Below are positions 2,143 to 37,355 of a stretch of 64,000 bases of DNA, in pieces (the stretch's first letter is position 1; the number at the start of each line of letters is the position of its first letter). Under the pieces are notes generated by a model that saw only the letters and a program-made list of their open reading frames with translations, had not been told where the DNA came from and ran no database searches. Source of the DNA: Candidatus Undinarchaeota archaeon (GTDB lineage Archaea; SpSt-1190; JASMDC01); assembly GCA_964519305.1 (NCBI GenBank), contig CAZFHY010000006.1:86099-150098 (forward strand), read 5' to 3'. The translations under genes and the position numbers were made by a program.

Positions 2143-3711
2143 TTATCGTCCGGTCAGTTCGTAGCGTGCGGGATCGAGCGTGCCGGGAGGCACAAGGACG
2201 ACATAGGAGCCCCAGTCCCAGGTGTCAAGGATGGTCACCTCGAAGAGGTCCTCATCGATGGGATCCTTGTCCTGATGGTTCTCGAACACCGACAGCCAGT
2301 CCGTGCTCTTGTCGCGAACAAGGAGCGCGATATGATCGCCCCCACGAGCGAGAACGTACCCGCCGTTCACCCGTGTATCATCGTGGAGCAGGTCGATGAC
2401 CGTGCTGTCCTTCCTCGTCCGGTCGTGGATCTCGATTGTCGTCTCGCCAGCATCGGTGACCGTCGTCGTGGAAGGACGGAAGTCGAGCAGGAAGAGGTCG
2501 ATGGGCAGGTCGTAGTATGTATGCTGGCCCTGCGCCACCTGGATGGCATACCCGTGCTCGTTCTTCTTGTTCCAGTGAGGGTGCTGCGAGTCCGGGGCGA
2601 CGAAGATTACCTGCCATCCCTGCTGTACCAGCTCCCGGGCTATGCCGATACCGCGCTTCCCTGTCCGTGTGTAAGCGCTGAAGAGCTGCTGGTACCGGGA
2701 GCCCAGCCCTGCCTCGTTGTGCGCCTCCTTCAGAACGTCCAGCACGATGCCGATGCACGAGCTCTCACGCGGTATCCGGTCCACGTCACTCGCCGTGGAA
2801 GATGTGGCGAGGGAGAGGGCCTCGGCCGCGTCCTTCCCTTCCATCCTAAGCTTGTAGTACCGGTACACGCCATCCGTGGTCGGCAGCCGTGGCACCGCCT
2901 GCTCGACCTCTTGAGCTATCCGCTGCTCGAACTGTTCCATGACACGATCCCGGGACTTCGGTTGTAGGACGAGCTGCCCGTAGAGGTCGAAGTTCAGCGT
3001 GCTGAGGTCACCCTGTTTGAGCAGGGCATAGAGGAGGGCCTTGGGATGGCTCCCGCCGAACCTGGTGGTGAGGAGCTCGGCATACTCCGAGTCGTCGCCG
3101 TAGTGGGTGCTGACGCCGAACCCGTGCTGCTCGTCGAGAGCTAGCTTGTGCTCGGAATGGGTCCGCAGCGCCTTCCGGGAGATGAGCTTGCCCATCGATA
3201 TGTCAGCAGTCGTGTCCACTGGGGCCGTACCTGCCGGAGCGGAGCCCAGCAGGCACCGTCCGTTCGCGATATACGTGCGTTCCTCGACACGCTGGAACCC
3301 GCGGTCGGCGACCGAGTAGCACTCGCCGGTCTCGAACCGATTGGTTGGACTGCTGACCAGGCAGCACGCGCACGCGAGCCGCAGACCATCGCTCCCTATG
3401 ATGTCGCAATCCAGCCAGTTGTCGAGCCGGCCGTAGAGCTGTGGATAGTGCTTCGTTTTGTCGCCCTGTACCGAGGTCCCGACCACCTTGCCCTCGAAAC
3501 ATGTCGTTTCCTGGCCGCTGACCGATAGGAGGTCGGAGCAGATGATGCACGCGTCCTCCACCATCTCCGAGCCGCCGCCATCAGCGTCCATGCTCTTGAG
3601 GCCCGTGCATGTTTCTGCACCACGATTTCCGTTGCATCCGGCAAGGAGCACCAGCGCGACAAGGAGGAGCGCGATGGCCGTTCCGCCACGCTCCGATCCA
3701 CCGAATACCAT
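2143..3711 (-). CDS. secreted lipoprotein-like protein of unknown function
   Basis: ORF track 522 aa; N-terminal hydrophobic signal followed by LLAGCNGN lipobox-like motif; opposite-strand ORF 2122-2967 is Arg/Val-rich shadow. Confidence 0.5.
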   Translation of the reverse strand: MVFGGSERGGTAIALLLVALVLLAGCNGNRGAETCTGLKSMDADGGGSEMVEDACIICSDLLSVSGQETTCFEGKVVGTSVQGDKTKHYPQLYGRLDNWLDCDIIGSDGLRLACACCLVSSPTNRFETGECYSVADRGFQRVEERTYIANGRCLLGSAPAGTAPVDTTADISMGKLISRKALRTHSEHKLALDEQHGFGVSTHYGDDSEYAELLTTRFGGSHPKALLYALLKQGDLSTLNFDLYGQLVLQPKSRDRVMEQFEQRIAQEVEQAVPRLPTTDGVYRYYKLRMEGKDAAEALSLATSSTASDVDRIPRESSCIGIVLDVLKEAHNEAGLGSRYQQLFSAYTRTGKRGIGIARELVQQGWQVIFVAPDSQHPHWNKKNEHGYAIQVAQGQHTYYDLPIDLFLLDFRPSTTTVTDAGETTIEIHDRTRKDSTVIDLLHDDTRVNGGYVLARGGDHIALLVRDKSTDWLSVFENHQDKDPIDEDLFEVTILDTWDWGSYVVLVPPGTLDPARYELTGR

Positions 3712-3770
3712 CGTGGTCTCTCTTCGCCCCCTGGTTTGTTATTAAGCGTTTCGGACGGTCGGCGGTTCAA

Positions 3771-4793
3771 TCACCGCTCATAGCTCACTGCACCGAGAGT
3801 GATGAGCTTGTTGAGCACCATGTCCACGGCAGCGTTCCCAAGCTGTTCGCGAACTGCCGCTTCGACCTCTACCATGTCACGAGTGCCGTCGCACAATTCC
3901 ACGACGGTCAGTCTCTCCTCGTCCTCTGTGATCTCTGTACCAAGGGGGAACCGAGCTTTGGGAAGTGCCCAGGCCTTCCGCGCCACATCGACCTTCATAG
4001 CCGGACCTTTGCTTGGATTTCCCTCGACAGTGATCAGGGTGCCCCGGTTCATCCCGTGGCGTTCGTCCTGTACGGCGATGACACCGCATGCGAGCGTGTA
4101 GGCAGTGGTCCCTCTCGGAGGGTCCACCTTGGCGTCCCGCTTCAGATGGTCGGTGATCCTGAACCGTGCGTCACGGTCTAGGACCACGCGGCCGCCCTCT
4201 ACCTTGGCGGTGAGGGTGGCGATGGGTGCTCGGGCGCAGGCCTTGACGAGACTGGGCCAGCCCTTGGAGTCCAGTGGGAGCACACCCTTTCCGGTATCAA
4301 GGAAAGCACCGTCCCTGCCCTTTATCTGGCCGGATACCGTACCATCGGGCGCAGGAGTGCATGCGGCCGCGAGCTCCAGCAGGCGCCGACCACCGCCCTT
4401 GGCGCGCTTCCATACACCTTCGAAGAACCGTGATGCAATCCGTCCCTTACCCGAGACCACGGCTCCCGCACCGTTCAGTCCCGCAAAAGGATTGGCACCG
4501 ACGTAGGCCCGCTCACCGTCCGCGATCACCAGGCATCCGTCAAGCCCTTCAGCGAACCGGCTGCGGGCTCCGAGGAACCGTCCCTTGAACCGTCGGAGGG
4601 CCAGTGGGTCCAGTTGTCCTTCGGCCAGGTTGGCCACAACCCGGAGGCGTACCGCCGATCGCTCGAACCTCACTCGCGGCTCTTCAAGGAAGATCGGAGC
4701 GATGATATCCAAGGAGCGTCGGGCACCGGCCATGAGCCGGACCACCTCGCGCGGGAGGGTGTGACGTCCGTCCTCGAGCACCAGGTGGACCAT
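3771..4793 (-). CDS. hypothetical protein (downstream partner of carbamoyltransferase)
   Basis: ORF track maximal extension 3771-4859 overlaps upstream gene; internal Met (MVHLVLEDGR...) at 4793 is proposed as start; no recognisable motif. Confidence 0.4.
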   Translation of the reverse strand: MVHLVLEDGRHTLPREVVRLMAGARRSLDIIAPIFLEEPRVRFERSAVRLRVVANLAEGQLDPLALRRFKGRFLGARSRFAEGLDGCLVIADGERAYVGANPFAGLNGAGAVVSGKGRIASRFFEGVWKRAKGGGRRLLELAAACTPAPDGTVSGQIKGRDGAFLDTGKGVLPLDSKGWPSLVKACARAPIATLTAKVEGGRVVLDRDARFRITDHLKRDAKVDPPRGTTAYTLACGVIAVQDERHGMNRGTLITVEGNPSKGPAMKVDVARKAWALPKARFPLGTEITEDEERLTVVELCDGTRDMVEVEAAVREQLGNAAVDMVLNKLITLGAVSYER

Positions 4794-4836
4794 GGCGTGG
4801 TGAGGGAGCCCAAGACATATAGGTATGACGGTGGCG

Positions 4837-6534
4837 TCAGGCCTGCTCGACGAGCACATCGCCCAGGGCCATGAGGGGGACGCCCGTCTCCACGAACGTC
4901 TTCAGCGCGTCCTCGGGAGTGCACACAATGGGCTGGCCATGGACGTTGAAGGAAGTGTTGAGCACGATGCCGTCACCGGTCTCTTTCCGCACGCCCTCGA
5001 TGACACGTCGATAGGCAGGGTTCTCCTCGCCAAGGATCTGGGGGCGGGAGGAGCCGTCCACGTTGATGACGGCACGGAGCTGGTCTCTTAGACCGTCCTG
5101 GATCAGATATCCCATGGTCATGAACCTGTCCGGTGCGTCCACGTCCTTGAAGAACCGCTTGCTGTCCTCTTCAAGTACCGAGGGGCAGAAGGGCTGGAAC
5201 CACACCCGCTTCTTCACCTTCATGTTCAGGTCGTGCTTGGCCGTGGGCGAGTCTGCACGGGCCAGGATGCTGCGGTTCCCCAGCGCCCGCGGACCCAGTT
5301 CCATCCGGCCGTTGTACCAGAACACGATGTCGTTGGCGGCGATGCGCTCTGCGGCTGTGCCGGCAGCATCTTCGGACCGCTCCCACCTTACCTTCCCCTT
5401 GAACGCCTTGAGAGCAGTGAGCACCTCGTCCTCGCCGTACTCAGGGCCGAGGAATATATGGGGGATGCGCTCCGGGTGGACCACGTCCACCTCCTTGGCC
5501 ACTTTGAGGGCGGCTCCGATGGCCAGGCCCCCGTCTCCCATGTGCGGGAACACGAACCATTCCTTGACATCAGGGAGCAGGCGGATGTGCATGTTCATCT
5601 TGATGTTGGAAGCGATGCCTCCGTTCCATGCCACCGAGGACATCCCTGTCTCCTTCACGGCGTTGGCGAACAGCTGGCTCGTGAAGTGCTCGAACGCCCG
5701 CTGGGCCATGTGAGCGAACTGTTCGCGGGGATTGCGCCATAGCGTCCGCTGGAGCAGCTTGTATCGAGCGCCGGGGGAGAGCCGTGCCCGGACCCGCATA
5801 CCGTCCACCTCGTAGAGGTCGAAGAAGGGGTTCTTCTCATCGGGCACCTCGTAGGAGAAGTCCGCGAGCGACATGACCTTCCCCTCGTCCTCGAGGACGC
5901 GCATACCGATTAGGTGGGTGACCTCCTGGTAGAACAGACCCAGTGAGTCGCGGGTAGCCATGGTCTCCAGGTTCCTGACATCGCCGTCCTCAGCGATCCC
6001 CACGGTCGTGGACACACCATCGCCCAGGGCGTCCATTGTGACCACCAGGCTCTTGCGGAATCCCGAACAGAGGGCCGCAGCGGCAGCATGGGCCTCGTGA
6101 TGGTCGACGATGTGGAGGATGTAATCATGGTCGAACCCTGCCCGCGCCAATTGCGTGTGCAGAGCGCGTTTCGACAGAGCATGGAACAACCTGTTCGACC
6201 GGAGCTTTCCGGTAGAGTTCTGGATGAGCCGGTTGATCTCGACGTTCCATGGCGGGTCCACCTTGTGGCGACGGACCGGATAGTAGTCCTCCTTCACCTT
6301 GGGCCACACGCGGCCCAGGGTGACCGAGAAGTCGGATGTGCACCCTGCCACGACCTCGATGTCCGCCGGTTTGAGGTCGGCGGCCCCGAGACACCAGGAC
6401 AGGGCCTTGTGGGGGAAGTGGACCTCGAGCTTACGACGTGTGAACCGCTCCTCGTTCGCAGCGGTGATCACTCGTCCGTCGCGGACCACGCAGGCGCCGG
6501 CGTCATGGCCGTCCCACACGCCCAGTATGTCCAT
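4837..6534 (-). CDS. carbamoyltransferase, NodU/CmcH family
   Basis: 565 aa; N-terminal MDILGVWDGHDAGACVV..., internal HHEAHAAAA and C-terminal WNGGIASN...GDGGLAIGAA motifs typical of the NodU/CmcH (HypF/Kae1-like fold) carbamoyltransferases. Confidence 0.75.
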   Translation of the reverse strand: MDILGVWDGHDAGACVVRDGRVITAANEERFTRRKLEVHFPHKALSWCLGAADLKPADIEVVAGCTSDFSVTLGRVWPKVKEDYYPVRRHKVDPPWNVEINRLIQNSTGKLRSNRLFHALSKRALHTQLARAGFDHDYILHIVDHHEAHAAAAALCSGFRKSLVVTMDALGDGVSTTVGIAEDGDVRNLETMATRDSLGLFYQEVTHLIGMRVLEDEGKVMSLADFSYEVPDEKNPFFDLYEVDGMRVRARLSPGARYKLLQRTLWRNPREQFAHMAQRAFEHFTSQLFANAVKETGMSSVAWNGGIASNIKMNMHIRLLPDVKEWFVFPHMGDGGLAIGAALKVAKEVDVVHPERIPHIFLGPEYGEDEVLTALKAFKGKVRWERSEDAAGTAAERIAANDIVFWYNGRMELGPRALGNRSILARADSPTAKHDLNMKVKKRVWFQPFCPSVLEEDSKRFFKDVDAPDRFMTMGYLIQDGLRDQLRAVINVDGSSRPQILGEENPAYRRVIEGVRKETGDGIVLNTSFNVHGQPIVCTPEDALKTFVETGVPLMALGDVLVEQA

Positions 6535-6553
6535 GGCGCGAGTGTTCAGGGCA

Positions 6554-6568
6554 AGTTTATATAACCAT
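6554..6568. promoter_or_regulatory. TATA-box-like element (tttatataa) in divergent intergenic region
   Basis: AT-rich palindromic TATA-like motif about 25-30 nt from the start of the minus-strand carbamoyltransferase gene and upstream of the plus-strand flippase-like gene. Confidence 0.4.
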
Positions 6569-6612
6569 TATCGTGGGAGCCTCTTCAGGTGTGATGACTG
6601 AACAGAAAGCTC

Positions 6613-7647
6613 GTGTTCACTGTCGTACTGGGACTGGCCGTTGCCATAGCCATGTTCTGGACTGAGGACCCGACGGAACTGTCGCGTGTGTGGTCGACGG
6701 CCCGTAACGACTACCTGCTGGCCGGCGTGCTCCTCGTCATCATCACCCTCTTCATCAACACGGTCCGCTGGTATACGCTACTCCATCAGCTCGGCTATGA
6801 TGCAGGGTTCATCGACGTGTTCTGTCAAGTGAGCGGCCCCTTCGTGGTCTCCTCCCTCACTCCCGGCCGTGCCGGCGAGGTGTTCAAGCTCTATGCCGCA
6901 AAGCGCATCAGCTGCATCGATGTATCCCACTCCAGTGCTGCGCTCCTTATCGAGCGCGCGTGCGATCTGTCCGTGATGACCTCCTTCATCCTCTTGGGGC
7001 TTGTGACCGGCCTCGAACCGCAGTTGGGCGCCTATGCCTCCGCTGCGTACGCCACAGTGGCGTTCACCATGACGGTCATCGCGGTGATAGTGCTCTCGGT
7101 GCGCCACCCGGGCGTGCTGGCGATGGTGGTCCGTGTGCTCGAACTGGGGGGCCGTGTCGGACTGCCCGGGTGCGGACGTGGCGCCAAGAAGATCGATGAG
7201 TGCGCTCCCGCCTTCCACTCGGTCGCAGGACGGATCAACCTGCCTCTTATACTCGGCATCACGGCGTGCGTGTGGGTGCTCGACGTTGCGCGTATGTGGG
7301 TGCTGTTCAAGGCACTGGGCGTCAACGTTCCGCTGGTGCCCATAGGGTTCGTGTACTGTCTTTCCCTCCTGTTGGGCATAGTGTCCTATGTCCCTGGTGG
7401 ACTGGGGGTCACCGAGGGTTCAATGGTCGTGCTGTTCGGGCTGTTCGCCGTACCCGGGACCCAGGCAAAGATCGCCGTTCTCATCGAGAGGGTGTTCTCG
7501 TTCTGGCTGGCCCTCTTCATCGGGAGCATGGCCCTCTCCTACAAGGCCGACGTGCTGCTGTTCGACCTGTCCTCGGGAGATATGCCGGACCTGACCGACG
7601 CGGAAGCCGCCACATGCCCCGCGGACGAGGACGATGAAACTAAGTAA
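6613..7647 (+). CDS. flippase-like / lysylphosphatidylglycerol-synthase-TM-domain family membrane protein
   Basis: 344 aa multi-pass membrane protein; conserved LTPGRAGEVF motif; acidic C-terminal tail TCPADEDDETK. Confidence 0.6.
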   Translation: MFTVVLGLAVAIAMFWTEDPTELSRVWSTARNDYLLAGVLLVIITLFINTVRWYTLLHQLGYDAGFIDVFCQVSGPFVVSSLTPGRAGEVFKLYAAKRISCIDVSHSSAALLIERACDLSVMTSFILLGLVTGLEPQLGAYASAAYATVAFTMTVIAVIVLSVRHPGVLAMVVRVLELGGRVGLPGCGRGAKKIDECAPAFHSVAGRINLPLILGITACVWVLDVARMWVLFKALGVNVPLVPIGFVYCLSLLLGIVSYVPGGLGVTEGSMVVLFGLFAVPGTQAKIAVLIERVFSFWLALFIGSMALSYKADVLLFDLSSGDMPDLTDAEAATCPADEDDETK

Positions 7648-7681
7648 CTTCTTATAGGAGCGTCGTCTGTCATTCGGACAG

Positions 7682-8734
7682 GTGGACCGCCTGAACAAAA
7701 AGCTCCTGCTCACCAGTGCCTTGGGCGCCGCCGTCCTCGCCGTCATGTTATGGTCGGTCGGCCCCGAACGCTTGACGGAGCTCGTGTCCGGGGCGCGACC
7801 GGGCTATATAGTCGCCGCAGCGCTCGCTATAGTGGTCCTCAACGTGATCGCCACGTTCCGCTGGCACCTGCTCATGTCGTCGCTCGGGTACGTGCTGACC
7901 CTCTGGGACACGTATTTCCAGATTAGTGGTGCTTTCCTTCTCTCGACTCTCACCCCGGGCCGTGCCGGCGAAGTGTTCCGGTTATACCTCTCCAAGCGTA
8001 TCAGCGATATCGACGCCTCCCACTCCGGCGCTGCGCTCCTCATCGAGCGCGCATGTGACCTTTCGGTGATGGCCGCTCTCATTCTTCTGGGGCTGGTGAC
8101 CGGTATGGGGGCGCAGTTGGGCGCCTTCGGGGACGCTGCCCGGGTCACCGTGGGTGTGACCTTCCTAATCGTCGCCATGCTCGTGCTCTCGGTGCGCCAC
8201 CGGTGGGCGATGGGCCTGGTGGTCCGGATCCTCTCTTTTGGAGGGCGACGAGGGCTCCCCGGGTGCGCGCGCGGTGCGCAGAAGATCGAGGAGAGCATCC
8301 CCGCGTTCCTATCGGTTGCACGTCGGGTGAGCGTGCCCGCTGTGTTCGGGATGACCTTGCTGATCTGGGCGTCCCAGGTCGCAAGGATGTGGTTCGTATG
8401 TGTCGCAGTAGGAGCCGAAGTGTCACCGATGGTCGTGGGCCTGGCCTACTGTCTCGGTATCCTTCTGGGTGTCGTGTCCTACATTCCTGGTGGGCTCGTG
8501 GTCACCGAGGGCACCATGGTCGGACTGCTCGTCGTGCACGGTGTGCCGACGGACATAGCGACGGTGGCCGTGGTGATCGACCGGCTGTTCGCCTACTGGG
8601 CCGCAGTAGTGGTCGGTGTGATGTCCCTTTCCTACAAGGCGGACGTGCTGTTGTTCGACTTCTCATCCGGCGAGATGCCGGACATGGTCGACGAGGAGAC
8701 GGCGACCTGTCCCCCGGACGATGATGAAGAGTAG
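7682..8734 (+). CDS. flippase-like membrane protein, tandem paralog of 6613-7647
   Basis: 350 aa; co-linear with upstream paralog at protein and nucleotide level (e.g. ...ccgggccgtgccggcgaagtgttc...); acidic tail TCPPDDDEE. Confidence 0.6.
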   Translation: MDRLNKKLLLTSALGAAVLAVMLWSVGPERLTELVSGARPGYIVAAALAIVVLNVIATFRWHLLMSSLGYVLTLWDTYFQISGAFLLSTLTPGRAGEVFRLYLSKRISDIDASHSGAALLIERACDLSVMAALILLGLVTGMGAQLGAFGDAARVTVGVTFLIVAMLVLSVRHRWAMGLVVRILSFGGRRGLPGCARGAQKIEESIPAFLSVARRVSVPAVFGMTLLIWASQVARMWFVCVAVGAEVSPMVVGLAYCLGILLGVVSYIPGGLVVTEGTMVGLLVVHGVPTDIATVAVVIDRLFAYWAAVVVGVMSLSYKADVLLFDFSSGEMPDMVDEETATCPPDDDEE

Positions 8735-8767
8735 TGGGACGTGTTCTGACACGTGATAAGTACTGTA

Positions 8768-8870
8768 TAGTTATGATGCAGTGTCAACTTCAGTCATAGT
8801 CCACTACATCTCTCAGTGATGGTTGGACGCTCCCGGTTTAGAATACTTGCGCGTAACTGTTTCGCAAAGG
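8768..8870. repeat. left copy of ~90-100 bp imperfect inverted repeat flanking the pilin-like cassette
   Basis: Reverse complement of 11385-11470 aligns with 8776-8865 (shared blocks tgcagtgtcaacttca, agtccac, cagtgatggtt, acttgcg.gtaac); roughly 75-80% identity by hand alignment. Confidence 0.6.
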
Positions 8871-9147
8871 TACCGGGACACAGAGAATTACTGAATTTTT
8901 GTTCAGTAACATGTGGATACCCTCTGTCGCCCTCATGGAAGCGAAAGGGCACAAGCTTCCCTTCAACAGTCAGCTAGCCAGAAGTCACCACATAGTACGA
9001 CCGTTCCAAAAAAGTACAGTAGACGCTGTATCTTCCTGCCATCACGCGAACATTGCGCGGACGTATCCCTGCCCAATCCTCCCACCTCGATATTGTAGGT
9101 GACGTGCCAGCAATGTCGCGTCTTGGGGGGCCCGGCCCGGTATCGAA

Positions 9148-9166
9148 AAGAATATATTATATTCAC
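9148..9166 (+). promoter_or_regulatory. TATA-box-like element (aatatattatatt) upstream of pilin-like gene
   Basis: AT-rich motif about 15-25 nt upstream of ATG 9179 in a 440-bp low-GC intergenic region; consistent with a leaderless transcript. Confidence 0.35.
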
Positions 9167-9178
9167 CCGTTAAGTCCC

Positions 9179-10933
9179 ATGGAAGGTGATCCGGTGGCAA
9201 GTAGAATCCTAACACTTTCATCTAGGAGTAACTCCGCTGGCCAGGCGGCCATGGAGTTCCTGATGAGCTACGGCTGGATGCTGGTGATCATCGTCATCGG
9301 CGGTGCCGCGATGTACTCCATGGGCATCCTCAACCCGGGCACCTACCAGAAGAAGGGCTGCGTCGGGTTCGAGAAGATCCATTACCGCGACCACCTGTTC
9401 CGCGGTACGGGCGAGGTCGGGCTGTGGACGGTGTGGTCGTCAGAGACCGAGCGCGAAAGCCAGTTCCAACTGCGTATGCAGAACGGGGCCGGGATCACCC
9501 TCCGCATCCGGGGCATCGACGTGGAGTATCCCGAGGGCGTGCACGTGACGTGGTCCGAGCGCGGCTACGACTGCGACTACTACAACACCGCTGACGACAC
9601 CGACTCGGGCTGCCAGGAGCAGAACGTGTCCGAGGGGGATCTCGCCACCCTCTCCATCGAGGACGTGGGGCGGGGGACTCTGGACCTGCGACACGGCGCC
9701 GTGTACCGCAGCAAGGTCAAGGTGACGTTCGACGCGTTCAACGCGCTGGAAGATCACTCTGAGGTGGCCATCTGCTGTGGCAAGATCGAGGGCGGCTCGA
9801 CCGCGTCCACATCGGGCGGCGGGAGCGGTTCGGGGTCCGGAACCGGTAGCGGTACGGGCTCCGGTACAGGTACTGGCAGCGGTACGGGATCCGGGACCGG
9901 GAGCGGCACCGGGGCGTCCTGGGGCCCCTGCATGGCCACGTGGGAGAAGGACGACGGATCGGACTACGAGATCATGTATGCCTCGTGGAACGGCGCGTGG
10001 AGCACCGCCGCCAAGGTGACCGACAACGCAATCTATGATAGCGCTCCTTCAATATCCTGCACCTCGTCGTCGTACTGCATGGCCGTCTGGTTCGCGTACG
10101 ACGGATCGGACTACGAAATCATGTACGCTACGTGGAACGGCGCCGCGTGGAGCGCCGCCGCCGCGGTGACCGACAACGCGGTCTCCGATACCAATCCCAT
10201 CGTGTCATGCCCGACCACGTCCTTCTGCATGGCCACGTGGAACGGGCATGACGGGGACAGCGAGATCATGTACGCTACGTGGAACGGCGCCGCGTGGAGC
10301 GCCGCTGCCAAGGTGACCGACAACGCACTCTCCGAGTCCATGTCCTCCGTGTCCTGCGCCACATCGTCGTCCTGTATGACCGCGTGGCGCGTCCTAGATG
10401 GGAATTACGAGATCAGGTCCGCCGCATGGAACGGTGCTTCTTTGAGCGATGCCGAGGTGACCGACTTCGCGTACAACGACATCCAGCCCTCCGTCTCCTG
10501 CCCCTCGGCGAGCTCCTGCATGGTCACGTGGAGCAGGCACCAGGGGTCCAGCGGCGGGGACTACGAGATCATGTCCGCTACGTGGAACGGCGCCGTATGG
10601 AGCGCTGCCGCCCTGGTGTGCGACAACTCGGACCAAGACTACGAGCCCACCGTGTCCTGCCCGACCACGTCCTTCTGCATGGCCACTTGGCACGCGTCCG
10701 GCGTCGGGATCAAGTACGCCTCTTGGAACGGCGCCTCGTGGGGCGCGGAGGCGACGGTTGTCGGATCGGGGATCAATCCCCAGGTATCATGCACGACATC
10801 GAGCTCGTGCATGGTGGTGTACTCCGTGAACGATATCAAGAGCGCTACATGGAACGGGAGCTCATGGAGCGACGCGGGGACGGTGGACACCGCCGCAGGC
10901 ACGAACTATCCGTACGTCTCGTGCGTGGGGTGA
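9179..10933 (+). CDS. archaeal pilin-like protein with class III signal peptide, Gly/Ser/Thr linker and ~8 tandem ~55-aa Trp/Cys repeats
   Basis: ORF track 9053-10933 (TTG maximal start); ...SAGQAAMEFLMSYGWMLVIIVIGGAAMY matches archaeal prepilin-like signal; repeat unit contains DYEIMYATWNGAAWSAAAKVTDNA...SC.TSS.CMA.W; start 9179 (ATG) or 9251 uncertain. Confidence 0.6.
   Translation: MEGDPVASRILTLSSRSNSAGQAAMEFLMSYGWMLVIIVIGGAAMYSMGILNPGTYQKKGCVGFEKIHYRDHLFRGTGEVGLWTVWSSETERESQFQLRMQNGAGITLRIRGIDVEYPEGVHVTWSERGYDCDYYNTADDTDSGCQEQNVSEGDLATLSIEDVGRGTLDLRHGAVYRSKVKVTFDAFNALEDHSEVAICCGKIEGGSTASTSGGGSGSGSGTGSGTGSGTGTGSGTGSGTGSGTGASWGPCMATWEKDDGSDYEIMYASWNGAWSTAAKVTDNAIYDSAPSISCTSSSYCMAVWFAYDGSDYEIMYATWNGAAWSAAAAVTDNAVSDTNPIVSCPTTSFCMATWNGHDGDSEIMYATWNGAAWSAAAKVTDNALSESMSSVSCATSSSCMTAWRVLDGNYEIRSAAWNGASLSDAEVTDFAYNDIQPSVSCPSASSCMVTWSRHQGSSGGDYEIMSATWNGAVWSAAALVCDNSDQDYEPTVSCPTTSFCMATWHASGVGIKYASWNGASWGAEATVVGSGINPQVSCTTSSSCMVVYSVNDIKSATWNGSSWSDAGTVDTAAGTNYPYVSCVG
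9790..9916 (+). repeat. low-complexity GS/GT-encoding tract (linker) inside pilin-like gene
   Basis: ggc/agc/acc/ggt codon repeats encoding GGGSGSGSGTGSGTGSGTGTGSGTGSGTGSGTG. Confidence 0.7.
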
Positions 10934-11304
10934 GCCGCGGCGGGGGCACCGTGGACGGGAGCGGGAACGTGTACTTGGTGGATACCGAGAACCACCGCAT
11001 CCAGAAGTTTACCTCGACAGGGACCTTCATCACAGAGTGGGGAGGCGGGGGCACGGGCGACGGGCAGTTCTCCACCCCACAGGGAATTGATATCGACACC
11101 TCCGGAAGGGTGTATGTCGCCGACGCGGGCAACAACCGCATTCAGGTGTTCGACACGGACGGAACCTTCATCACGAAGTGGGGGAGTTGGGGTACGGGCG
11201 ACGGGGAGTTAATCACCCCGAGCAATATGATCACGGTCGGGAGCGATACCATCTACGTCGTGGAATCGGGGAACAACCGGGTGCAGAAGTTCACCATATC
11301 GTAG
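10930..11304 (+). CDS. NHL-repeat segment (about 2.5 NHL repeats) in a different frame from the pilin-like gene; either a frameshifted C-terminal domain or a small coupled ORF starting at GTG
   Basis: Frame-1 translation GVSRGGGTVDGSGNVYLVDTENHRIQKF...GRVYVADAGNNRIQVFD...IYVVESGNNRVQKF shows NHL motifs; GTG 10930-10932 overlaps stop TGA 10931-10933 of the upstream ORF; no ATG in frame; upstream frame-1 sequence is Arg-rich nonsense. Confidence 0.4.
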   Translation: MSRGGGTVDGSGNVYLVDTENHRIQKFTSTGTFITEWGGGGTGDGQFSTPQGIDIDTSGRVYVADAGNNRIQVFDTDGTFITKWGSWGTGDGELITPSNMITVGSDTIYVVESGNNRVQKFTIS

Positions 11305-11384
11305 CGGACCGTTGTAAGTGGTGCCCCTGTCGCGTCCAGGGGGGCGGACCTACCTGACCGCTGGACGTGAGGTCATCCCGCGAC

Positions 11385-11470
11385 CGTTACACGCAAGTGT
11401 TTTAATCTGGAGTACCTAACCATCACTGTGAGGATGGGTGGACTCTTGTTGAAGTTGACACTGCACAAAA
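11385..11470. repeat. right copy of imperfect inverted repeat (inverted relative to 8768-8870)
   Basis: See left copy; lies between the end of the NHL segment and the 3' end of the convergent MBL-fold hydrolase gene. Confidence 0.6.
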
Positions 11471-11507
11471 GTTTCTGAGTACCCTTGCATCACTTCCTAC
11501 CAGAGTC

Positions 11508-12269
11508 CTAGAACTCAACCCTTTCTCCCGGTCGCAGGGTACGCACCTTGATGCCTGGCTCCCGTTCACGCGCCAACCTCTCCAGCTCCTCGGGGCGTCC
11601 CGAATGGAAGGATAAGGGCGGTAGGCTCATCCAGGCACCACCCTCGTGGATGGGGATGACTTTGCTAGCGCCAAGTTCCACTGCGGCCTGGAGGGCCTGG
11701 GCAGGGGTCATGACGATGCGGCGGCCAAGCACCCGGGAGCCGCCTATAGGGAGCATGGCCACGTCGATGGTGAAGCGCCGGCCAATATCGGTGAACCCGT
11801 GATGGTACTTCGTATCGCCGCCGAAGAACAGGCTCGTGGACCCGTCCTGGAGGACGAAGTTGATCTCGCCGTCCGGATGGTCCGCCTCGGTAGCGGTGAT
11901 GGTGACCCCTCCCTGCTCCTGGACGTCGCCCGGGACCATGTCCACGACCTCCTTCGCTCCCAGGTCGCGAGCGAAACGCGCCGTCCCCTCAGGCCCGAGG
12001 ATGGTTGTCTTGGCCAGGTCCATACGGCTTAAAGAGCGCCGGTCGAAGTGGTCCGGGTGGAGATGTGAGGCGACAATCAGGTCGATGGGTGGCAGGTCCT
12101 TGAGCTCGATACCGGGGCGCTGGTAGCAGGGCAGTCCCCGTAACTGCATGCAGAACCAGGGGTCGGTGAGGACCGTGAGCCCCTCGAACCGCAGCAGGAG
12201 CGTAGAGGTCCGGACGAATGTGACGTCCACCACGCTCCCGGGATAGGGGGCAAACGTTTTATGTCCCAT
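11508..12269 (-). CDS. MBL-fold metallo-hydrolase
   Basis: ORF track 258 aa; HxHxDH motif (SHLHPDH) and downstream His/Asp ligands; start taken at MGHKTF. Confidence 0.7.
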   Translation of the reverse strand: MGHKTFAPYPGSVVDVTFVRTSTLLLRFEGLTVLTDPWFCMQLRGLPCYQRPGIELKDLPPIDLIVASHLHPDHFDRRSLSRMDLAKTTILGPEGTARFARDLGAKEVVDMVPGDVQEQGGVTITATEADHPDGEINFVLQDGSTSLFFGGDTKYHHGFTDIGRRFTIDVAMLPIGGSRVLGRRIVMTPAQALQAAVELGASKVIPIHEGGAWMSLPPLSFHSGRPEELERLAREREPGIKVRTLRPGERVEF

Positions 12270-12777
12270 CCTCCGGCGGAGCACGCAGTGCTGCCCAGGG
12301 CCTTACGCCTCTTGAGACCATCACTGCGAATCCGCCCCATCCGACCGCTAGCAGCAGAAGCTGTGCGGCGATGAATACCTCCCGGGGGAACAGCCCCCAC
12401 GTCGACACCAGACACACGGTCTCGGAGAACGGGCGCAGGCACCGAGCATTACCTTCCCAGAGGATAGGGAGGCCTATGCCCAGATCGATAGCGGCGTGGA
12501 GCAGAACACCAGCTAGGCACACGGGCAGGACACGACGGAACCGTTGCGGGTCCCTGGCGAGCATCCACGCGACCACGGCCGCTAGCAATGGCAGAACGAT
12601 AAGGTTGCCCATCACGGTAGCATGGGTGCGTGCCAGCACGCTCCACCCGAACACCACCATCACCAGGTCTATGTCCGGTACCACGCTGGCCACGAGGAAC
12701 GCGCGGGTCCGCTCCCGGTCCAGTCCCTGTCTAGAGGCGATAAGGAGCGCGAGCATGTAATGTGTGAGCGGGTCCAT
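12259..12777 (-). CDS. membrane-bound metal-dependent hydrolase-like protein (YdjM-like)
   Basis: 172 aa, starts MDPLTHYMLALLIA, four hydrophobic helices with conserved His/Asp positions. Confidence 0.5.
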   Translation of the reverse strand: MDPLTHYMLALLIASRQGLDRERTRAFLVASVVPDIDLVMVVFGWSVLARTHATVMGNLIVLPLLAAVVAWMLARDPQRFRRVLPVCLAGVLLHAAIDLGIGLPILWEGNARCLRPFSETVCLVSTWGLFPREVFIAAQLLLLAVGWGGFAVMVSRGVRPWAALRAPPEDGT

Positions 12778-12781
12778 GGGT

Positions 12782-14197
12782 TCACCCGCGGCCTAGGAGC
12801 CGGCGGGCGGCCTTGGCACCTGCCCAAGCCATAGTGCGGACCTGAGCGTCACCCTTCAGAGCGGCGAGCGTCTGCCGTCCCACGTACCCGGGGCGCAGGT
12901 AGAAGGCCCGGTTGATGCGCTGCCAGTACTCCCGGAGAAGCTCGGGTGGTGCGGTGGGATTCTCCATCACGGTCTCGTTGAGGAACACGTACCGCTCCCA
13001 GTCGTCCGTCTGCAGGAGATCGTTCTTCTCGGCCCATGCGTGGAGCCCGGTGCCCGGGTACGGTGTGGCGAAGGACACCTGAAGGTAGTCGCAGTCGACC
13101 TCCTGGACGAGCTGGAGCGTCTCCTCCAGCGTCTCCTGGGTCTCCCCCGGCAGTCCCAGCATAAGGAATCCCATGGTCTTGATGCCCTCGTCGTGCGCCA
13201 ACGTGAAGGCGTTCTTGATCTGCTCCACGGTGATGCCCTTGCGCATGGCGTTGAGGAGTTTCTGGGAGCCGGACTCTATACCGAACTCGATGAGGTCGCA
13301 CCCCGCTTCGTGCATGGCCGCCAGCACGTCCTTGTCCACGGTGTCGGCCCGCGTGAGGGCCTTCCACCGCAGGTCGTCGGGCAGACCCCGTTCTACGAGC
13401 TCATGGCACAGCTCGATCGACCATGAACGGTCCACGGCGAACGTGTCGTCCAGGAAAGAGATGAGCTTGACGCCGAACTCGCGCCTGTCCCGCTCTATCT
13501 CCTCGGCGACGTTCCGCGGGGAACGTGTGCGCAGCGTCCCACCGAACACCCAGGGGCATGAGCAGTAGATGCACCGGCCCGGGCAGCCACGGACAGCAAT
13601 TACCGTGGAGAAATGATCAGATTCAGGCGCCCTGTACCGTTCCATGGGCAGGAGATGGAGGGCTGGGAATGGCAGGTCGTCCAGTGGGTCCACCAGCGGT
13701 CGTTGTGGCCCGTGCACTATCCTCTTGCCTTTACGGAGCGACACACCGGCCACCCGGGATAGCTTGCTAGGACCTTCCGGGAGCGAGTCCACCAGCTCGG
13801 GGAGGGTGCGCTCCCCCTCACCACGCACCAGCATATCGATAGATGGGAGCCGTGTGAGGGTCTGGTCCGGGACCATGCTGGCATGGACACCGCCCAGAAC
13901 TGTGGTCGTTTCAGGTCGCAGGGTCTTGACACCATGGGCGATGCGGCCGCACAGGTCCGCAGTGGGAGTTGTGGCGGTGAGCCCTACAACGTCGGGTTCG
14001 GCGTCCAGCACCCGACGGACCGCCTCTTCCTCGGAGAGCTGGAGCGCATTGGCGTCAAGTATGTCCACCGGTACGCCGGCCACTTCAAGGCACGCGGCGA
14101 GGTAGGCCAGCCCGAGCGGGGGGCCTACTGATATCTGGGCGATGGCCTCGGTCCGTGACTGGTACGGCGGGTTCACCAGCAGCACGGATGGTGCCAT
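12782..14197 (-). CDS. B12-binding domain radical SAM protein (class B)
   Basis: ORF track 12782-14251; N-terminal B12-binding-like region (VLLVNPPYQ...GLAYLAA), CxxxCxxC motif (CPGRCIYC); start proposed at internal Met (MAPSVLL) because the maximal start collides head-to-head with the divergent gene. Confidence 0.7.
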   Translation of the reverse strand: MAPSVLLVNPPYQSRTEAIAQISVGPPLGLAYLAACLEVAGVPVDILDANALQLSEEEAVRRVLDAEPDVVGLTATTPTADLCGRIAHGVKTLRPETTTVLGGVHASMVPDQTLTRLPSIDMLVRGEGERTLPELVDSLPEGPSKLSRVAGVSLRKGKRIVHGPQRPLVDPLDDLPFPALHLLPMERYRAPESDHFSTVIAVRGCPGRCIYCSCPWVFGGTLRTRSPRNVAEEIERDRREFGVKLISFLDDTFAVDRSWSIELCHELVERGLPDDLRWKALTRADTVDKDVLAAMHEAGCDLIEFGIESGSQKLLNAMRKGITVEQIKNAFTLAHDEGIKTMGFLMLGLPGETQETLEETLQLVQEVDCDYLQVSFATPYPGTGLHAWAEKNDLLQTDDWERYVFLNETVMENPTAPPELLREYWQRINRAFYLRPGYVGRQTLAALKGDAQVRTMAWAGAKAARRLLGRG

Positions 14198-14213
14198 GGT
14201 CGAAAAGGGGCCT

Positions 14214-14228
14214 GTTACCTTAATAAAC
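14214..14228. promoter_or_regulatory. shared divergent BRE/TATA-like element (ccttaataaacg)
   Basis: Located between rSAM start (about 14197, minus) and membrane gene start (14250, plus); the same cc-ttaataa motif recurs upstream of other genes in the window. Confidence 0.4.
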
Positions 14229-14249
14229 GTTACACGGGTTCGTTCCATC

Positions 14250-16004
14250 ATGCTCGGACAGGCAGGGGGGCTTGTGGCAGGTTTCCTGACCTGGACCTAT
14301 GCTCTTCTCGTACCGGGACTGCTGTGGGCGCTGGCCCTCTATCCTGGCCGGACGCTCATCTTCACGCTCGTGACAGGCCTGTCGATCGGTCTCTTCGTGA
14401 TGCCCGTGGGCGCTTTCATGTTCGCTTGGCTGACCGGCACGGTCGTCTCTGTACCGCTGGTGCTCTCTCTCGCTACCCTGCTCTCTCCGCTGGCCCTTGT
14501 CGTACGATGGCCTCGAGCACCTTCCCGGGGCGATTCCGGGGACGGTGGGGCCGCAGCACTGATCCTGGCGCTCCTTCTCCTAATGGGTGCGCTCTACGAG
14601 GGGACCGCTCTTGGTTACTGGGACACCTACATCGTGGCCCCCGCTCTGTTCATCATCGATGAGCCCATTGCCTTCGTGGACATGAACGGCAACCTCCTGG
14701 TGAACGCCACCCTCACCGGAAAGCTGTTCGACAATCTCAGGGACGATACGACCTATGGCATCATCACAAAGGACCAGCGCCTGGGTGCGGGTGTGCTGGT
14801 CTCGGTCCATGCCCTCCTCCTGGGCGATGTGGGGTTCAGACTGGCCTTCGCCTGCTACCACGCGCTTGGTGCGGCCGCGATCTACCTGGCGGCCCGACTG
14901 CTCTTCAGTTCGTCATGGATGGGCATTGCCGCCGCCACGCTCCTTGGGTTCAACGGGTTCGTGCTCACAGCAGATACCCTCAATCCCAACGCCATCGCCA
15001 TGTCCATGAGCGCTGTGATGACCATGTTGCTGCTCCACAGGCCGCGAGGGAGGCAGTGGGCGATCATCGGTCTGCTCCTGGGCACCCTTGGTGGGGTACG
15101 GAACATCGCACTGCTCTTCGTCCCTGCGGTCATCTGGGCGACCCGGCCCTGGGACCGGCGACGGCTGGTGCTGCTCCTGGCAACGGCCTTCATCCTCAAC
15201 GCACCTTTCCTCGCGTGGAACAGGTTCGCCTTCGGTAGTATGTTCACCCACGCCGCTATGTACGCCGGGTATGAGGGGTGGCGGCCCCAGTTCGAGCACC
15301 AGTTACCGGTCCTGGGCACGTCGTTCAAGTTCAACGGGATGCTCAACTGGCCGTTCTACGATAACATAGTCCGGACACCTCACTTCCCATTTCCTGTGTT
15401 CCTCCTCCTGCCGCTTACTGTCATACGTTCCTTCGGCCTCGTCCTCTCTGCACTGGGGCTCGCTGGCATCGCTTTCCTATGGCGGGACGACCGCGCCGCC
15501 ATTATCCTACTTCTGCTCTGGGCCCTTCCATATTTCATGTTCTTCCTACCGCAGGAGAACTGGTCCGAGCTGAAGATGACCTTCCTCCTCCCTATCTATC
15601 CGGCAATGGTGCTATTGGTCCTGGCCGGTCTGCGCGGATCACGCCCGCTGCACATCGCCGTGTCGCTCCTCCTGCTCATCGTGTTCGTACAAGTGGCCGC
15701 GACGAGCCAATACGAGCCCGATCCGCGGTGGCCCGAGCGCTTCCCACATTCCATGGCCAACGCGGGCAGGGAGCTGCCCGACGAACTGCGTGATACCCAG
15801 TTCTTCTTCCACCTGCCGGAGAACGATGACGAACTGATCCACCAGCGCCAGCGGTTCACGGCCGGGAACATCTTTCCATCGATCCGCACCGTTCCCCGTG
15901 AGCGTTTGAGCGGTCTGAGAGCGGCCCTCCGGACCGAGATGAGCGAGCGGAACAATGATGGTAGGCGGACCATGATCGCGGTATGGAACTACATCTACGG
16001 ATGA
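14250..16004 (+). CDS. polytopic membrane protein, putative GT-C-type glycosyltransferase-like
   Basis: ORF track 14142-16004; about 12 predicted TM helices, IIDEP loop motif, ~585 aa from MLGQAGG; assignment by architecture only. Confidence 0.45.
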   Translation: MLGQAGGLVAGFLTWTYALLVPGLLWALALYPGRTLIFTLVTGLSIGLFVMPVGAFMFAWLTGTVVSVPLVLSLATLLSPLALVVRWPRAPSRGDSGDGGAAALILALLLLMGALYEGTALGYWDTYIVAPALFIIDEPIAFVDMNGNLLVNATLTGKLFDNLRDDTTYGIITKDQRLGAGVLVSVHALLLGDVGFRLAFACYHALGAAAIYLAARLLFSSSWMGIAAATLLGFNGFVLTADTLNPNAIAMSMSAVMTMLLLHRPRGRQWAIIGLLLGTLGGVRNIALLFVPAVIWATRPWDRRRLVLLLATAFILNAPFLAWNRFAFGSMFTHAAMYAGYEGWRPQFEHQLPVLGTSFKFNGMLNWPFYDNIVRTPHFPFPVFLLLPLTVIRSFGLVLSALGLAGIAFLWRDDRAAIILLLLWALPYFMFFLPQENWSELKMTFLLPIYPAMVLLVLAGLRGSRPLHIAVSLLLLIVFVQVAATSQYEPDPRWPERFPHSMANAGRELPDELRDTQFFFHLPENDDELIHQRQRFTAGNIFPSIRTVPRERLSGLRAALRTEMSERNNDGRRTMIAVWNYIYG

Positions 16005-18689: not shown

Positions 18690-18850
18690 TTTAAACATTT
18701 TCTTTGGATTTGACACGAAATCGCACGATTTGGGCTTATTCCCCGAAAAAACGGCTATTAAGCCTTAATAACATCTTTGAGCGTCTGTAGGGCGTCGAAG
18801 CGCACCGCATACTTTCATGCTATGTGAACTACCCCTCACCAATTAGAGGG
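18690..18850 (-). ncRNA. putative omega-RNA (reRNA) region at the right end of the tnpB element
   Basis: By analogy with IS200/IS605 TnpB systems the guide RNA overlaps the 3' end of tnpB and extends downstream; an oligo-T run (gccgttttttcgggg on the minus strand) lies near 18745; boundaries not determinable by eye. Confidence 0.25.
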
Positions 18851-20150
18851 GCTTCCCGCTTCGATACTGTTTCCAGCTCCACGGGCGCATCGGGTGGTCC
18901 CCACCCTGAGCGATTCTGAATGTTGATTGCTGCGTTCAGGTCGCGGTCAATGGTAAGGCCGCAGTTCCAGCAGCTATGTACTCGAACCGACAGGTCCTTC
19001 TTCACTAGCATACCACAACGGCTGCACATCTGAGAGGTGTTTTTCGGGTCAACCAGTACTACCTTCCCACCAGCCTCTTCCGCTTTGTAGGTGGTGTACT
19101 GGATGACCTTGTTCCAAGAAGCATCAACAATGGACTTTGCTAGATAGTGGTTTTTCATCATATTGAGGATATCGAGTTTCTCGAAGGTGATGGTCGAGTA
19201 GTTATCAGCAAGCTGACGGGAGAGCTTGTGGGCGAAGTCGGTGCGCTGGTTTCGGACCTTGCGGTGCACTTTGGCAAGCGCCTTCTTAGCCTTTTTCCTA
19301 CGGTTCGAGCCAATCTTTCTTCTTGAGATCCGACGCTGACGCGTCTTGATATTTTTCTCCGACTCTCGGAGGAAGCGTGGATTCTCGATGACGGCCCCAT
19401 CGGAGAGAGTGGCGAAATTCTCAAGGCCGACATCCACGCCGACGGCGATCCCGTCATGTGATCTAGCCTCGACTTTTACCTCACAGGAGAAGACGACGTA
19501 CCACTGATCAACATCGCGCTTGACGGTGCAGGTCTTTATCCTACCTTCGAGCGGTCGATGTAGCTTAATGCGAACGGGACCGATCTTCGAGAGTTTGAGA
19601 TGCTGTTCATCCGGAGAAAGTGAGAAGCCGCTCTGCGGATAGGTGAATGAGTCATATCTCCCCTTGCCCTTGAACCGGGGGTATCCGGGAGTTTCACCGT
19701 TCCTCACACGACGGAAGAACGCGTCGAACGCCTTCCTCAACCTCCGGAGGACATCCTGAAGTACTTGGGAGTGGACCTGTTGCTGATACTCATCCCTGTT
19801 TCCCGGGAGGGCGTCCTGTTGGTCCCTGTAGGTGACGCATCGTTGCTCATCCTTCCAGGCATCCGTGCGTTCTGCAAGTGCGTTGTTATAGAGCCTACGG
19901 CAGGTCTCGAGTGTGAATATTAGAATCGATTCCTGAGACTTGTTCGGATACAGACGATATCTGTAGCTACGTATCACTGTTTCCCCGTCCCCCACCAGAT
20001 ATCCTATTGGATGAAATAGTATTGCCGTGAATAAATAGGACTGGGAGGTGGCGTGCCAGTACTCGTTCAGGAAGTAACTTTCGAGTAAGTCACCTCCCTC
20101 TCGGAAGGCGACATCCCGCCGAAACGTAGAAAAGAGTTAGTCATCATACG
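18700..20150 (-). mobile_element. IS1341-like (tnpB-only) insertion element, approximate boundaries
   Basis: tnpB plus flanking lower-GC ends; imperfect hairpin gggaggtg...cacctccc at 20043-20097 near the putative left end. Confidence 0.45.
18829..19995 (-). CDS. tnpB: IS200/IS605-family transposase accessory protein TnpB (RuvC-like nuclease with zinc finger)
   Basis: 388 aa; canonical N-terminus RSYRYRLYPNKSQ, central RuvC-like region, C-terminal CxxC...CxxC zinc finger (CSRCG...CWNCG); no tnpA adjacent. Confidence 0.85.
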   Translation of the reverse strand: MGDGETVIRSYRYRLYPNKSQESILIFTLETCRRLYNNALAERTDAWKDEQRCVTYRDQQDALPGNRDEYQQQVHSQVLQDVLRRLRKAFDAFFRRVRNGETPGYPRFKGKGRYDSFTYPQSGFSLSPDEQHLKLSKIGPVRIKLHRPLEGRIKTCTVKRDVDQWYVVFSCEVKVEARSHDGIAVGVDVGLENFATLSDGAVIENPRFLRESEKNIKTRQRRISRRKIGSNRRKKAKKALAKVHRKVRNQRTDFAHKLSRQLADNYSTITFEKLDILNMMKNHYLAKSIVDASWNKVIQYTTYKAEEAGGKVVLVDPKNTSQMCSRCGMLVKKDLSVRVHSCWNCGLTIDRDLNAAINIQNRSGWGPPDAPVELETVSKREAPLIGEG

Positions 20151-37306: not shown

Positions 37307-37355
37307 GGGCACGTGGAGGTGCGCAAGATTAATAACGGTAGCGTCGACGGTCGGC

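Follow-up and report, generated by a model that had tools for sequence, protein, structure and literature searches.

The stretch of DNA analysed here is 64,000 nucleotides (nt) long, is referred to below as the window, and comes from contig CAZFHY010000006.1 of an assembly labelled Candidatus Undinarchaeota archaeon. On its plus strand lies a single gene, window positions 9194 to 10933, whose 579 codons specify a leader peptide with a hydrophobic helix, a pilin-like globular module, a Gly/Ser/Thr linker, and an array of seven Trp- and Cys-rich units. The DNA at this gene is ∼60% GC. An earlier reading of the stretch (the sequence-only reading) had described a Trp/Cys tandem repeat here, behind a prepilin-like N-terminus and a GS/GT linker, and all three elements are present. 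Tandem Repeats Finder returns a 147-nt period over 9928-10387 with a score of 464, and a gap-free repeat search finds seven in-register copies at spacings of 147, 147, 147, 156, 141, and 126 nt, each 61-84% identical in nt sequence to the reference copy. The units were delimited by cutting the translation at each CM[ATV][ATV][WY], which gives seven units of 41-53 amino acids (aa; median 49) with pairwise aa identities of 42-69%. The 335-aa array contains 19 Trp and 15 Cys, and its unit motif, CMAxW...YEIMYAxWNGxxWS...VSC, agrees with the consensus given earlier. The earlier count of about eight units of ∼55 aa has to be corrected to seven units of ∼49 aa, as the apparent eighth unit is a lone PCMATW strand at the start of the array. 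At its other end the array stops after ...YPYVSCVG without a final CMAxW strand, and the related genes end at the same point (...ISCVG-stop in locus L003, 15957-17591; ...VSCVD-stop in P0001; ...LSCPSV-stop in P0002). Because the array has a single CMATW strand at its start and ends after VSC, and because the orthologues stop there too, we conclude that the lone strand completes the last, truncated unit in a Velcro-type circular closure of a propeller. Units 2, 3, and 5 (within 9958-10704) share 78-84% DNA identity, well above the other units, a hint of recent duplication, or of gene conversion, among the units.

To model the head, the array was aligned with two archaeal and thirteen bacterial homologous segments (alignment A1, 16 members with the window protein), and this alignment served as the AlphaFold input. 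The model is all-beta, with four strands per unit, a mean pLDDT of 91.7, and a pTM of 0.91, and it predicts with high confidence that the array is a closed seven-bladed beta-propeller. Of the new beta-propeller or beta-sandwich blade proposed from the sequence, the propeller thus stands, whereas a wholly new blade type does not, given the link to BNR propellers described below. As read from the strand positions, a blade runs in the order VSC (inner strand), CMAxW, YEIMYAxW, and (NG)xxWSxAxxV, with its C-x5-C pair on either side of the five-residue turn that joins strands one and two. Across A1 the two Cys hardly vary, and the Cys-free relative P0038 lacks both of them together; for this reason we think that they probably form a disulfide staple on the hairpin between the two inner strands of each blade. 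In the last blade, this staple may link the C-terminal strand to the N-terminal strand.

Foldseek places the Photorhabdus PHL/PLL fucose-binding lectins at the top of the matches to this model (TM ∼0.72, E ∼1e-10), followed by TolB, sialidases, and the fungal AAL lectin. Nearest among solved folds are CylK and the fucose lectins of the PLL/PHL type, integrin alpha propellers are also among the fold matches, and in one fold-match list sequence identity is ≤11%. The PLL/PHL/BP39L lectins of Photorhabdus and Burkholderia are like the head in having seven blades of similar size, and their structures have been solved bound to fucose and other sugars. Unlike the window protein, they are soluble and not fused to a pilin, and with 10-15% identity the likeness is at the fold level only; no PDB sequence or profile match to the head assigns it to the PLL/PHL type. 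Sialidases, polysaccharide lyases, and lactonases occur among the fold matches as well, and the family is akin to the sialidase/BNR superfamily, both of which would suit a propeller that is a displayed enzyme (a glycosidase, a lyase, or a CylK-like catalyst) and not a binding module. We consider such an enzyme very improbable. Identity to all the enzymes named lies at 5-14%, what is invariant in the family alignment is the structural Trp, Gly, and Cys that recur in every blade, with no unique catalytic set among them, the blades are near-copies of each other (up to 69% aa identity) and as such ill-suited to an asymmetric active site, and the head evolves fast.

Direct profile searches did not assign the repeat to a named family. 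For the whole window protein, Pfam gave one irrelevant low-complexity match only, and when all 16 A1 members were scanned it gave nothing of note for the window protein and no BNR-type match at E ≤ 1. NCBIfam returned no match for the window protein or for three relatives from bacteria. Over all Pfam and NCBIfam searches, the repeat drew only stray matches to DUF6087 and half-model matches to DUF2510. The BNR profile hidden Markov models (HMMs; PF02012 BNR and PF14870 PSII_BNR) do not match the window protein above their curated cut-offs, NHL (PF01436) has no match within 9053-10933, and a PDB-wide profile search found no solved relative, the best match being the sialidase NanC at E 0.24. Six of the 16 A1 members, all bacterial, match positions 17-34 of the 35-residue DUF2510 model (PF10708; best E 3.8e-10) through their ..WNGtxWs hairpin; DUF2510 is, however, a short stand-alone motif and not a propeller blade, only half of the model is matched, and the window protein has no such match. 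The Asp-box S-x-D-x-G-x-T-W between strands 3 and 4 is found in none of the seven units, all of which read [ST/A]-W-N-G-x-x-[W/L] at this position, with the Trp three residues on in six of the seven. Since both the defining motif and the family HMMs fail, we do not file the blade as a BNR repeat.

A connection to the Asp-box propellers is provided by P0041, a bacterial protein of 744 aa and of actinobacterial type in which an Asp-box/Ycf48-like propeller with a Cys pair is followed by a TIG domain and then by a propeller of the Trp/Cys type. The N-terminal propeller of P0041 combines VSCxxxxxCVAVG strands with the Asp-boxes SSDGGARW, STDAGATW, STDAGSTW, and SHDGGATW and passes Pfam PSII_BNR with 45.8 bits against a cut-off of 27. 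Alignment of A1 to this propeller with hhalign gives a probability of 98.3% and an E of 1.2e-14 over 230 columns and puts WNGxxW on the Asp-box, as does the sub-significant NanC alignment. P0041 thus appears to be a natural intermediate joining both blade types. On the basis of the hhalign link, we conclude that the blade is in all likelihood a derived form, so far without annotation, that branched off from the Asp-box/BNR (Ycf48-like) propellers and in which Ser-x-Asp has become x-x-Trp and a Cys pair has been added, a homology that runs through this one intermediate. Ycf48-like Asp-box/BNR propellers (PF14870, sialidase superfamily) share with the head their four-stranded blades, the number of seven blades (in Ycf48), and the Gly-x-x-Trp hairpin between the third and fourth strand; the window array differs from them in its added C-x5-C pair and in the extra Trp of each blade. 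The view that the unit matches no family that can be named therefore holds for the window protein as far as direct profile matches go (Pfam, NCBIfam, and PDB). It does not hold at the level of HMM-HMM comparison, which joins the unit to a Cys-containing Ycf48-like propeller and leaves no room for a blade unrelated to BNR.

A HMMER search with the A1 profile, exhaustive over 1.84 billion cluster representatives, returned 62,658 matches at E ≤ 1e-3, 38,172 at E ≤ 1e-10, and 14,582 at E ≤ 1e-30. An initial homologue search gave no sequence identical to the window protein, and among its non-archaeal matches three had an informative source name, one each from Acidimicrobiales, Streptomyces, and a fungus. 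Non-archaeal homologues bear signal peptides, Ig-like, TIG, or fn3 domains, or a Ser/Thr kinase domain, and these companions point to the Trp/Cys repeat being an extracellular module.

The part of the protein that precedes the array opens with an N-terminus like that of a type IV pilin. We set aside the starts TTG at 9053, given in the list of open reading frames (ORFs), and ATG at 9179 in favour of GTG at 9194, which is the start conserved among the relatives. Every homologue begins with a GTG set within GGTGGCA, behind which come a short leader of basic character and Gln; at 9194 the window reads CCGGTGGCA, in the same GGTGGCA context, and continues into MASRILTLSSRSNSAG/QAAMEFLMSYGWMLVIIVIGGAAMY (the slash marks the predicted cleavage site). 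The leaders of the relatives read MALLYRRG/QAAIEFL, MAAVGRRG/QAAIEFL, ..KKRG/QASLEFL, and ..SARG/QAALEFL, with GRA/Q also seen. The window protein (..SNSAG/QAAMEFLMSYGWMLVIIVIGGAAMY) shows the class III/type IV pilin pattern of Gly at -1, Gln at +1, Glu at +5, and a ∼22-residue hydrophobic helix. This pattern of leader, Gln, Glu at +5, and hydrophobic helix is kept in all relatives, the mature N-terminal segment is almost invariant in alignment A2, and AlphaFold predicts a helix over residues 10-42 of the pilin module. The coordinates of these elements and of those that surround the gene are collected in Table 1.

Table 1. Features of the pilin-like gene and its surroundings, in window coordinates
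Feature	Position	Strand	Remarks
2.8-kb variable segment	8735-11509		between the 3' ends of LPG_synthase_TM (7682-8734, +) and MBL-fold gene (11508-12284, -), which are convergent and of housekeeping type
Inverted-repeat left arm	8777-8838	-	62 nt, 74% complementary to 11404-11465; orphan paralogue promoter/5' element
AT-rich TATA-like stretch AAAGAATATATTATATTCACC	9146-9168	+	26-48 nt upstream of GTG; read from sequence
Leader peptide MASRILTLSSRSNSAG	9194-9241	+	class-III-type signal; cleavage predicted before Gln at 9242
Mature N-terminus QAAMEFLMSYGWMLVIIVIGGAAMYSMGIL	9242-9331	+	Glu at +5, ∼22-residue hydrophobic helix (pilin alpha-1)
Pilin-like globular module	9332-9790	+	∼150 aa, putative beta-sandwich; four conserved Cys, invariant N-V-S sequon (A2)
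Gly/Ser/Thr linker GGSTASTSGGGSGSGSGTGSGT...GTGASWGP	9791-9928	+	∼45 aa; from the translation
Trp/Cys units 1-7	9929-10075, 10076-10225, 10226-10372, 10373-10516, 10517-10675, 10676-10807, 10808-10930	+	from the cut of the translation
NHL-head 3' remnant	10930-11304	+	∼2.7 blades in another frame; GTG overlaps the stop (GTGA); Pfam NHL E 1.9e-20, 3 stretches
Native stop codon	10931-10933	+	directly after the final VSCVG strand
GC-rich hairpin-like element GCCCCTGTCGCGTCCAGGGGGGC	11323-11345	+	putative terminator; also in paralogue 3' flanks
Inverted-repeat right arm	11404-11465	+	orphan paralogue promoter/5' element, then a few codons only

The first 199 residues of the window protein recur, at 45-85% identity, in stand-alone proteins of ∼194 aa and in longer multi-domain proteins. 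The headless ∼194-aa proteins (P0044, P0045, and P0047; MPSNKK[AS]ARG/QAALEFL...CSGK[IL]E) are 72-78% identical to the module. In the longer proteins, the same module is combined with NHL propellers (P0003, P0005), with FBA (P0004, P0009), or with Calx-beta plus LamG-type domains (P0006-P0008), and the same kind of linker stands between module and head. In the window gene, low-complexity tandem repeats of 18-24 nt lie in the linker, at 9820-9913. At one further locus, L004 10001-20151 (also L005-L007), behind a headless 194-aa pilin come a multi-pass membrane protein of 138 aa and, after it, five tandem PMT_2-type glycosyltransferase genes; because glycosyltransferase genes follow it, this arrangement hints that the pilin, with its invariant N-V-S sequon, is glycosylated.

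With one genome per GTDB species searched, Candidatus Undinarchaeales archaeon ETNP3_MAG_31 is the sole genome with the module, which it has at four loci, and the source of P0008 bears the same label. On contig L001 (20.7 kb), at least five paralogues, with heads of three types, are scattered among nucleotidyltransferase/HEPN and AAA_14 genes, and L003 holds two paralogues, one of them a full-length relative of the window gene with 71.5% nt identity. Both clusters contain nucleotidyltransferase/HEPN pairs, RHH/DUF3368 pairs, and AAA_14-DUF4143 ATPase genes, and the surroundings look like a toxin-antitoxin or defence island.

Bacteria are known to have modular pilins, in which an adhesive module is grafted onto a pilin (PMC8179133, PMC9934059). 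Streptococcus sanguinis PilB (vWA module) and PilC (concanavalin-like lectin module) and CofB of enterotoxigenic Escherichia coli (ETEC) have, like the window protein, a class-III-type leader, a Glu5 helix, a small pilin module, a linker, and a bulky grafted module (PMC8179133, PMC9934059), and the variety of grafted modules at the family level is likewise as here. The window protein differs from the bacterial examples in its archaeal carrier, which resembles Aap-type or other archaeal pilins, in its long Gly/Ser/Thr linker, in its seven-bladed head, and in that a place in a filament and a part in adhesion are what we infer for it. A second group of comparable proteins consists of archaeal substrate-binding and galactose-binding-domain proteins that carry a class III signal, which likewise expose a functional domain other than a pilin at the surface (bioRxiv 10.64898/2026.04.22.720090). 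In contrast to these, the window protein has a complete pilin-like module between the helix and the functional domain, and the functional domain is exchanged among paralogues.

These binding proteins provide the model for a different reading, in which the protein is a surface receptor whose class III signal and helix are only a membrane or pseudopilus anchor, as in the Sulfolobus bindosome, and whose propeller captures a nutrient or senses a ligand. Proteins that join a class III signal to non-pilin functional domains occur widely in archaea, with no requirement that they form long fibres (bioRxiv 10.64898/2026.04.22.720090), neither the window gene nor the headless homologue has pilus genes nearby, and in bacteria the repeat also forms the extracellular part of the Ser/Thr kinase P0042, a sensor-like use. 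Even so, a receptor of this kind seems unlikely to us. The carrier has a ∼150-aa pilin-like domain of its own, which also occurs as a stand-alone protein of 194 aa, as is typical of filament subunits, and the heads seen in the family belong to types among which there are known lectins or adhesion modules, and not to solute-binding-protein folds.

The DNA around the gene bears the marks of rearrangement. On both sides of the locus, the metagenome contig L012 runs collinear with the window at ∼87% nt identity (L012 143-6740 corresponds to window 2150-8724, and L012 6844-9562 to window 11510-14228) and has ∼103 nt (6741-6843) where the window has 8725-11509. From this comparison, the whole locus appears to have been gained or lost between close relatives. 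The empty site in L012 contains, by eye, a short palindrome, AGTACTAAAGCATGCTTTAGTAC, whose halves resemble the outer ends of the inverted repeat of the window, which suggests an insertion into, or a palindrome-mediated deletion at, a bidirectional terminator. Just upstream of the variable segment lie two LPG_synthase_TM paralogues in tandem (6613-7647 and 7682-8734).

Within the segment, directly after the stop codon of the pilin-like gene, the remainder of an NHL-type head follows. Its translation is 58% identical to the last 118 residues of P0005 and has the same end (...RVQKFTI[ST]-stop), and the DNA likeness continues into the 3' flank of the NHL gene. An assignment of these NHL repeats to the window protein was considered and rejected: the native stop precedes them, their frame is a different one, and the propeller closes without them. 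Both the window gene and its relative in L003 have ...TCTCGTGCGTGGGGTGA, and their sequences part exactly after the TGA stop. The remnant is thus best read as a stump, left either when the greater part of an NHL-type gene gave way to a Trp/Cys-head cassette or when a deletion fused two tandem paralogues. Downstream of it stands the GC-rich hairpin-like element; in L001 and L003, elements of like sequence (GCCCCTTTCGCGTCCATGGGGGC) come after the stops of the paralogues, and the element may be a terminator. Because the NHL remnant follows the stop, and because the 2.8-kb segment is present in one and absent from the other of two close relatives, the locus appears to turn over by recombination.

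The arms of the inverted repeat that bounds this segment share with the upstream regions of the paralogues the element ACCGTT...GCAAGTGTTTTA...GGTGG. A ∼70-nt promoter/5' element, ACCGTTGCGCGACCGTT..GCAAGTGTTTTATATCC..GGTGGCA, precedes every pilin paralogue in L001 and L003, and the window gene is without it. The inverted repeat was considered as a phase-variation switch and set aside, as its arms are symmetric, outward-facing orphan promoters and an inversion would not alter expression of the gene. No invertase lies nearby, and the only mobile-element gene found is an IS605-type TnpB, 8 kb off. This IS605-type OrfB/TnpB gene occupies window 18829-19995 on the minus strand, and a 63-nt piece matching its end is present at L012 9581-9643, at a second indel near window 14228.

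On balance, we favour the reading that the gene encodes a modular type IV pilin-like adhesin, which probably belongs to a head-swapping gene family of a marine archaeon. In this protein, a class III signal peptidase would remove the short leader before Gln, and the helix and the small putative beta-sandwich would form a pilin carrier that packs into a pilus-like fibre, probably at its tip or sparsely, or that anchors in the membrane. The ∼45-residue Gly/Ser/Thr tether would hold out the propeller of seven Trp/Cys units, the C-x5-C pair of each blade would staple its inner hairpin, and the PCMATW strand would close the last blade like Velcro, perhaps locked by a like disulfide. The propeller would then bind a ligand outside the cell, a glycan carried by a partner cell or by a surface being the most plausible one, and may serve in cell-cell attachment. 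Across the paralogues, the family would keep the carrier and exchange the head among a Trp/Cys propeller, an NHL propeller, FBA, and Calx-beta plus LamG.

Several observations weigh against this reading. The Arg or Lys at -2 that all relatives have is missing from the window leader only. Pfam Class_IIIsignal (PF04021; cut-off 23.7 bits) finds no match to the window N-terminus, and the relatives stay below threshold (E 0.091 and 1.3). In alignment A3, with the paralogue upstream regions, the gene's own upstream sequence is without the family promoter element. Because the leader has no basic residue at -2 and the conserved family promoter is absent, the window copy could be poorly processed or poorly expressed. 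Among the window ORFs of at least 200 aa there is no type IV filament ATPase, platform protein, or prepilin/class III signal peptidase, and the position on a pilus-like filament that the sequence-only reading gave the protein stays, for the present, one that we infer; pili genes are reported in all Undinarchaeota metagenome-assembled genomes of the describing paper (PMC7414124). The likeness of the head to lectins is at 10-15% identity, and seven-bladed propellers of many functions score almost equally. Finally, the related contigs have 57-65% GC and the window 60%, compared with ∼40-42% in described marine Undinarchaeales (PMC7414124), for which reason we treat the organism label, which was taken from the title of one metagenome-assembled genome, as provisional.

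The same features of leader and promoter could mark a decaying or silent copy, left from rearrangements in the paralogue cluster and with no current function, and a truncated NHL head and two orphan promoter copies that adjoin the gene, together with the absence of the whole segment from a close relative, would fit such a copy. We judge this improbable. The 579-codon frame is intact in DNA of 60% GC, the Trp/Cys/Gly scaffold is kept in all seven units, the stop codon is at its native position, and an AT-rich TATA-like stretch, a candidate promoter, precedes the conserved GTG start. In addition, the carrier is under purifying selection: a crude Nei-Gojobori comparison with the L003 orthologue gives a dN/dS of ∼0.27 for the carrier and ∼0.78 for the head, whose scaffold residues are conserved, an estimate that is rough, that is confounded by repeat homogenization, and that to this extent also counts among the points against the adhesin. 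The two values fit a constant stalk with a fast-changing binding surface.

Elsewhere in the window, a 745-aa ORF at 35462-37699 on the minus strand has matches to UQ_con (E 3e-22, a eukaryote-type ubiquitin-conjugating enzyme), UEV, and RWD. It is adjoined by two large ORFs without a Pfam match (37356-40235 and 40223-42283, minus strand), which is unusual to find in an archaeal genome of small size. Within 10 kb there are three genes for B12-binding radical SAM proteins, at 12782-14251 (minus strand), 20152-21471, and 21482-22897 (both plus strand).

For the repeat itself, these results mean that a family with more than 38,000 clusters (E ≤ 1e-10), which is not modelled by Pfam or NCBIfam, now has a confidently predicted fold and a probable Asp-box origin. 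The modular pilin design, documented mainly in bacteria, is here seen in an archaeal lineage labelled DPANN, for which host recognition is an open question. We tentatively suggest, at well under even confidence, that a marine archaeon of the DPANN type keeps a battery of pilins with a constant stalk and interchangeable heads (Trp/Cys propeller, NHL, FBA, and Calx-beta/LamG), renewed by recombination through conserved stalk and promoter sequences. The NHL stump and the 2.8-kb segment bounded by inverted promoter copies would be the footprints of such swaps, and the fast-evolving heads would set which host cells the episymbiont can attach to. A family of one carrier and many heads, together with its apparent recombination scars, thus offers concrete candidates for host-attachment proteins.

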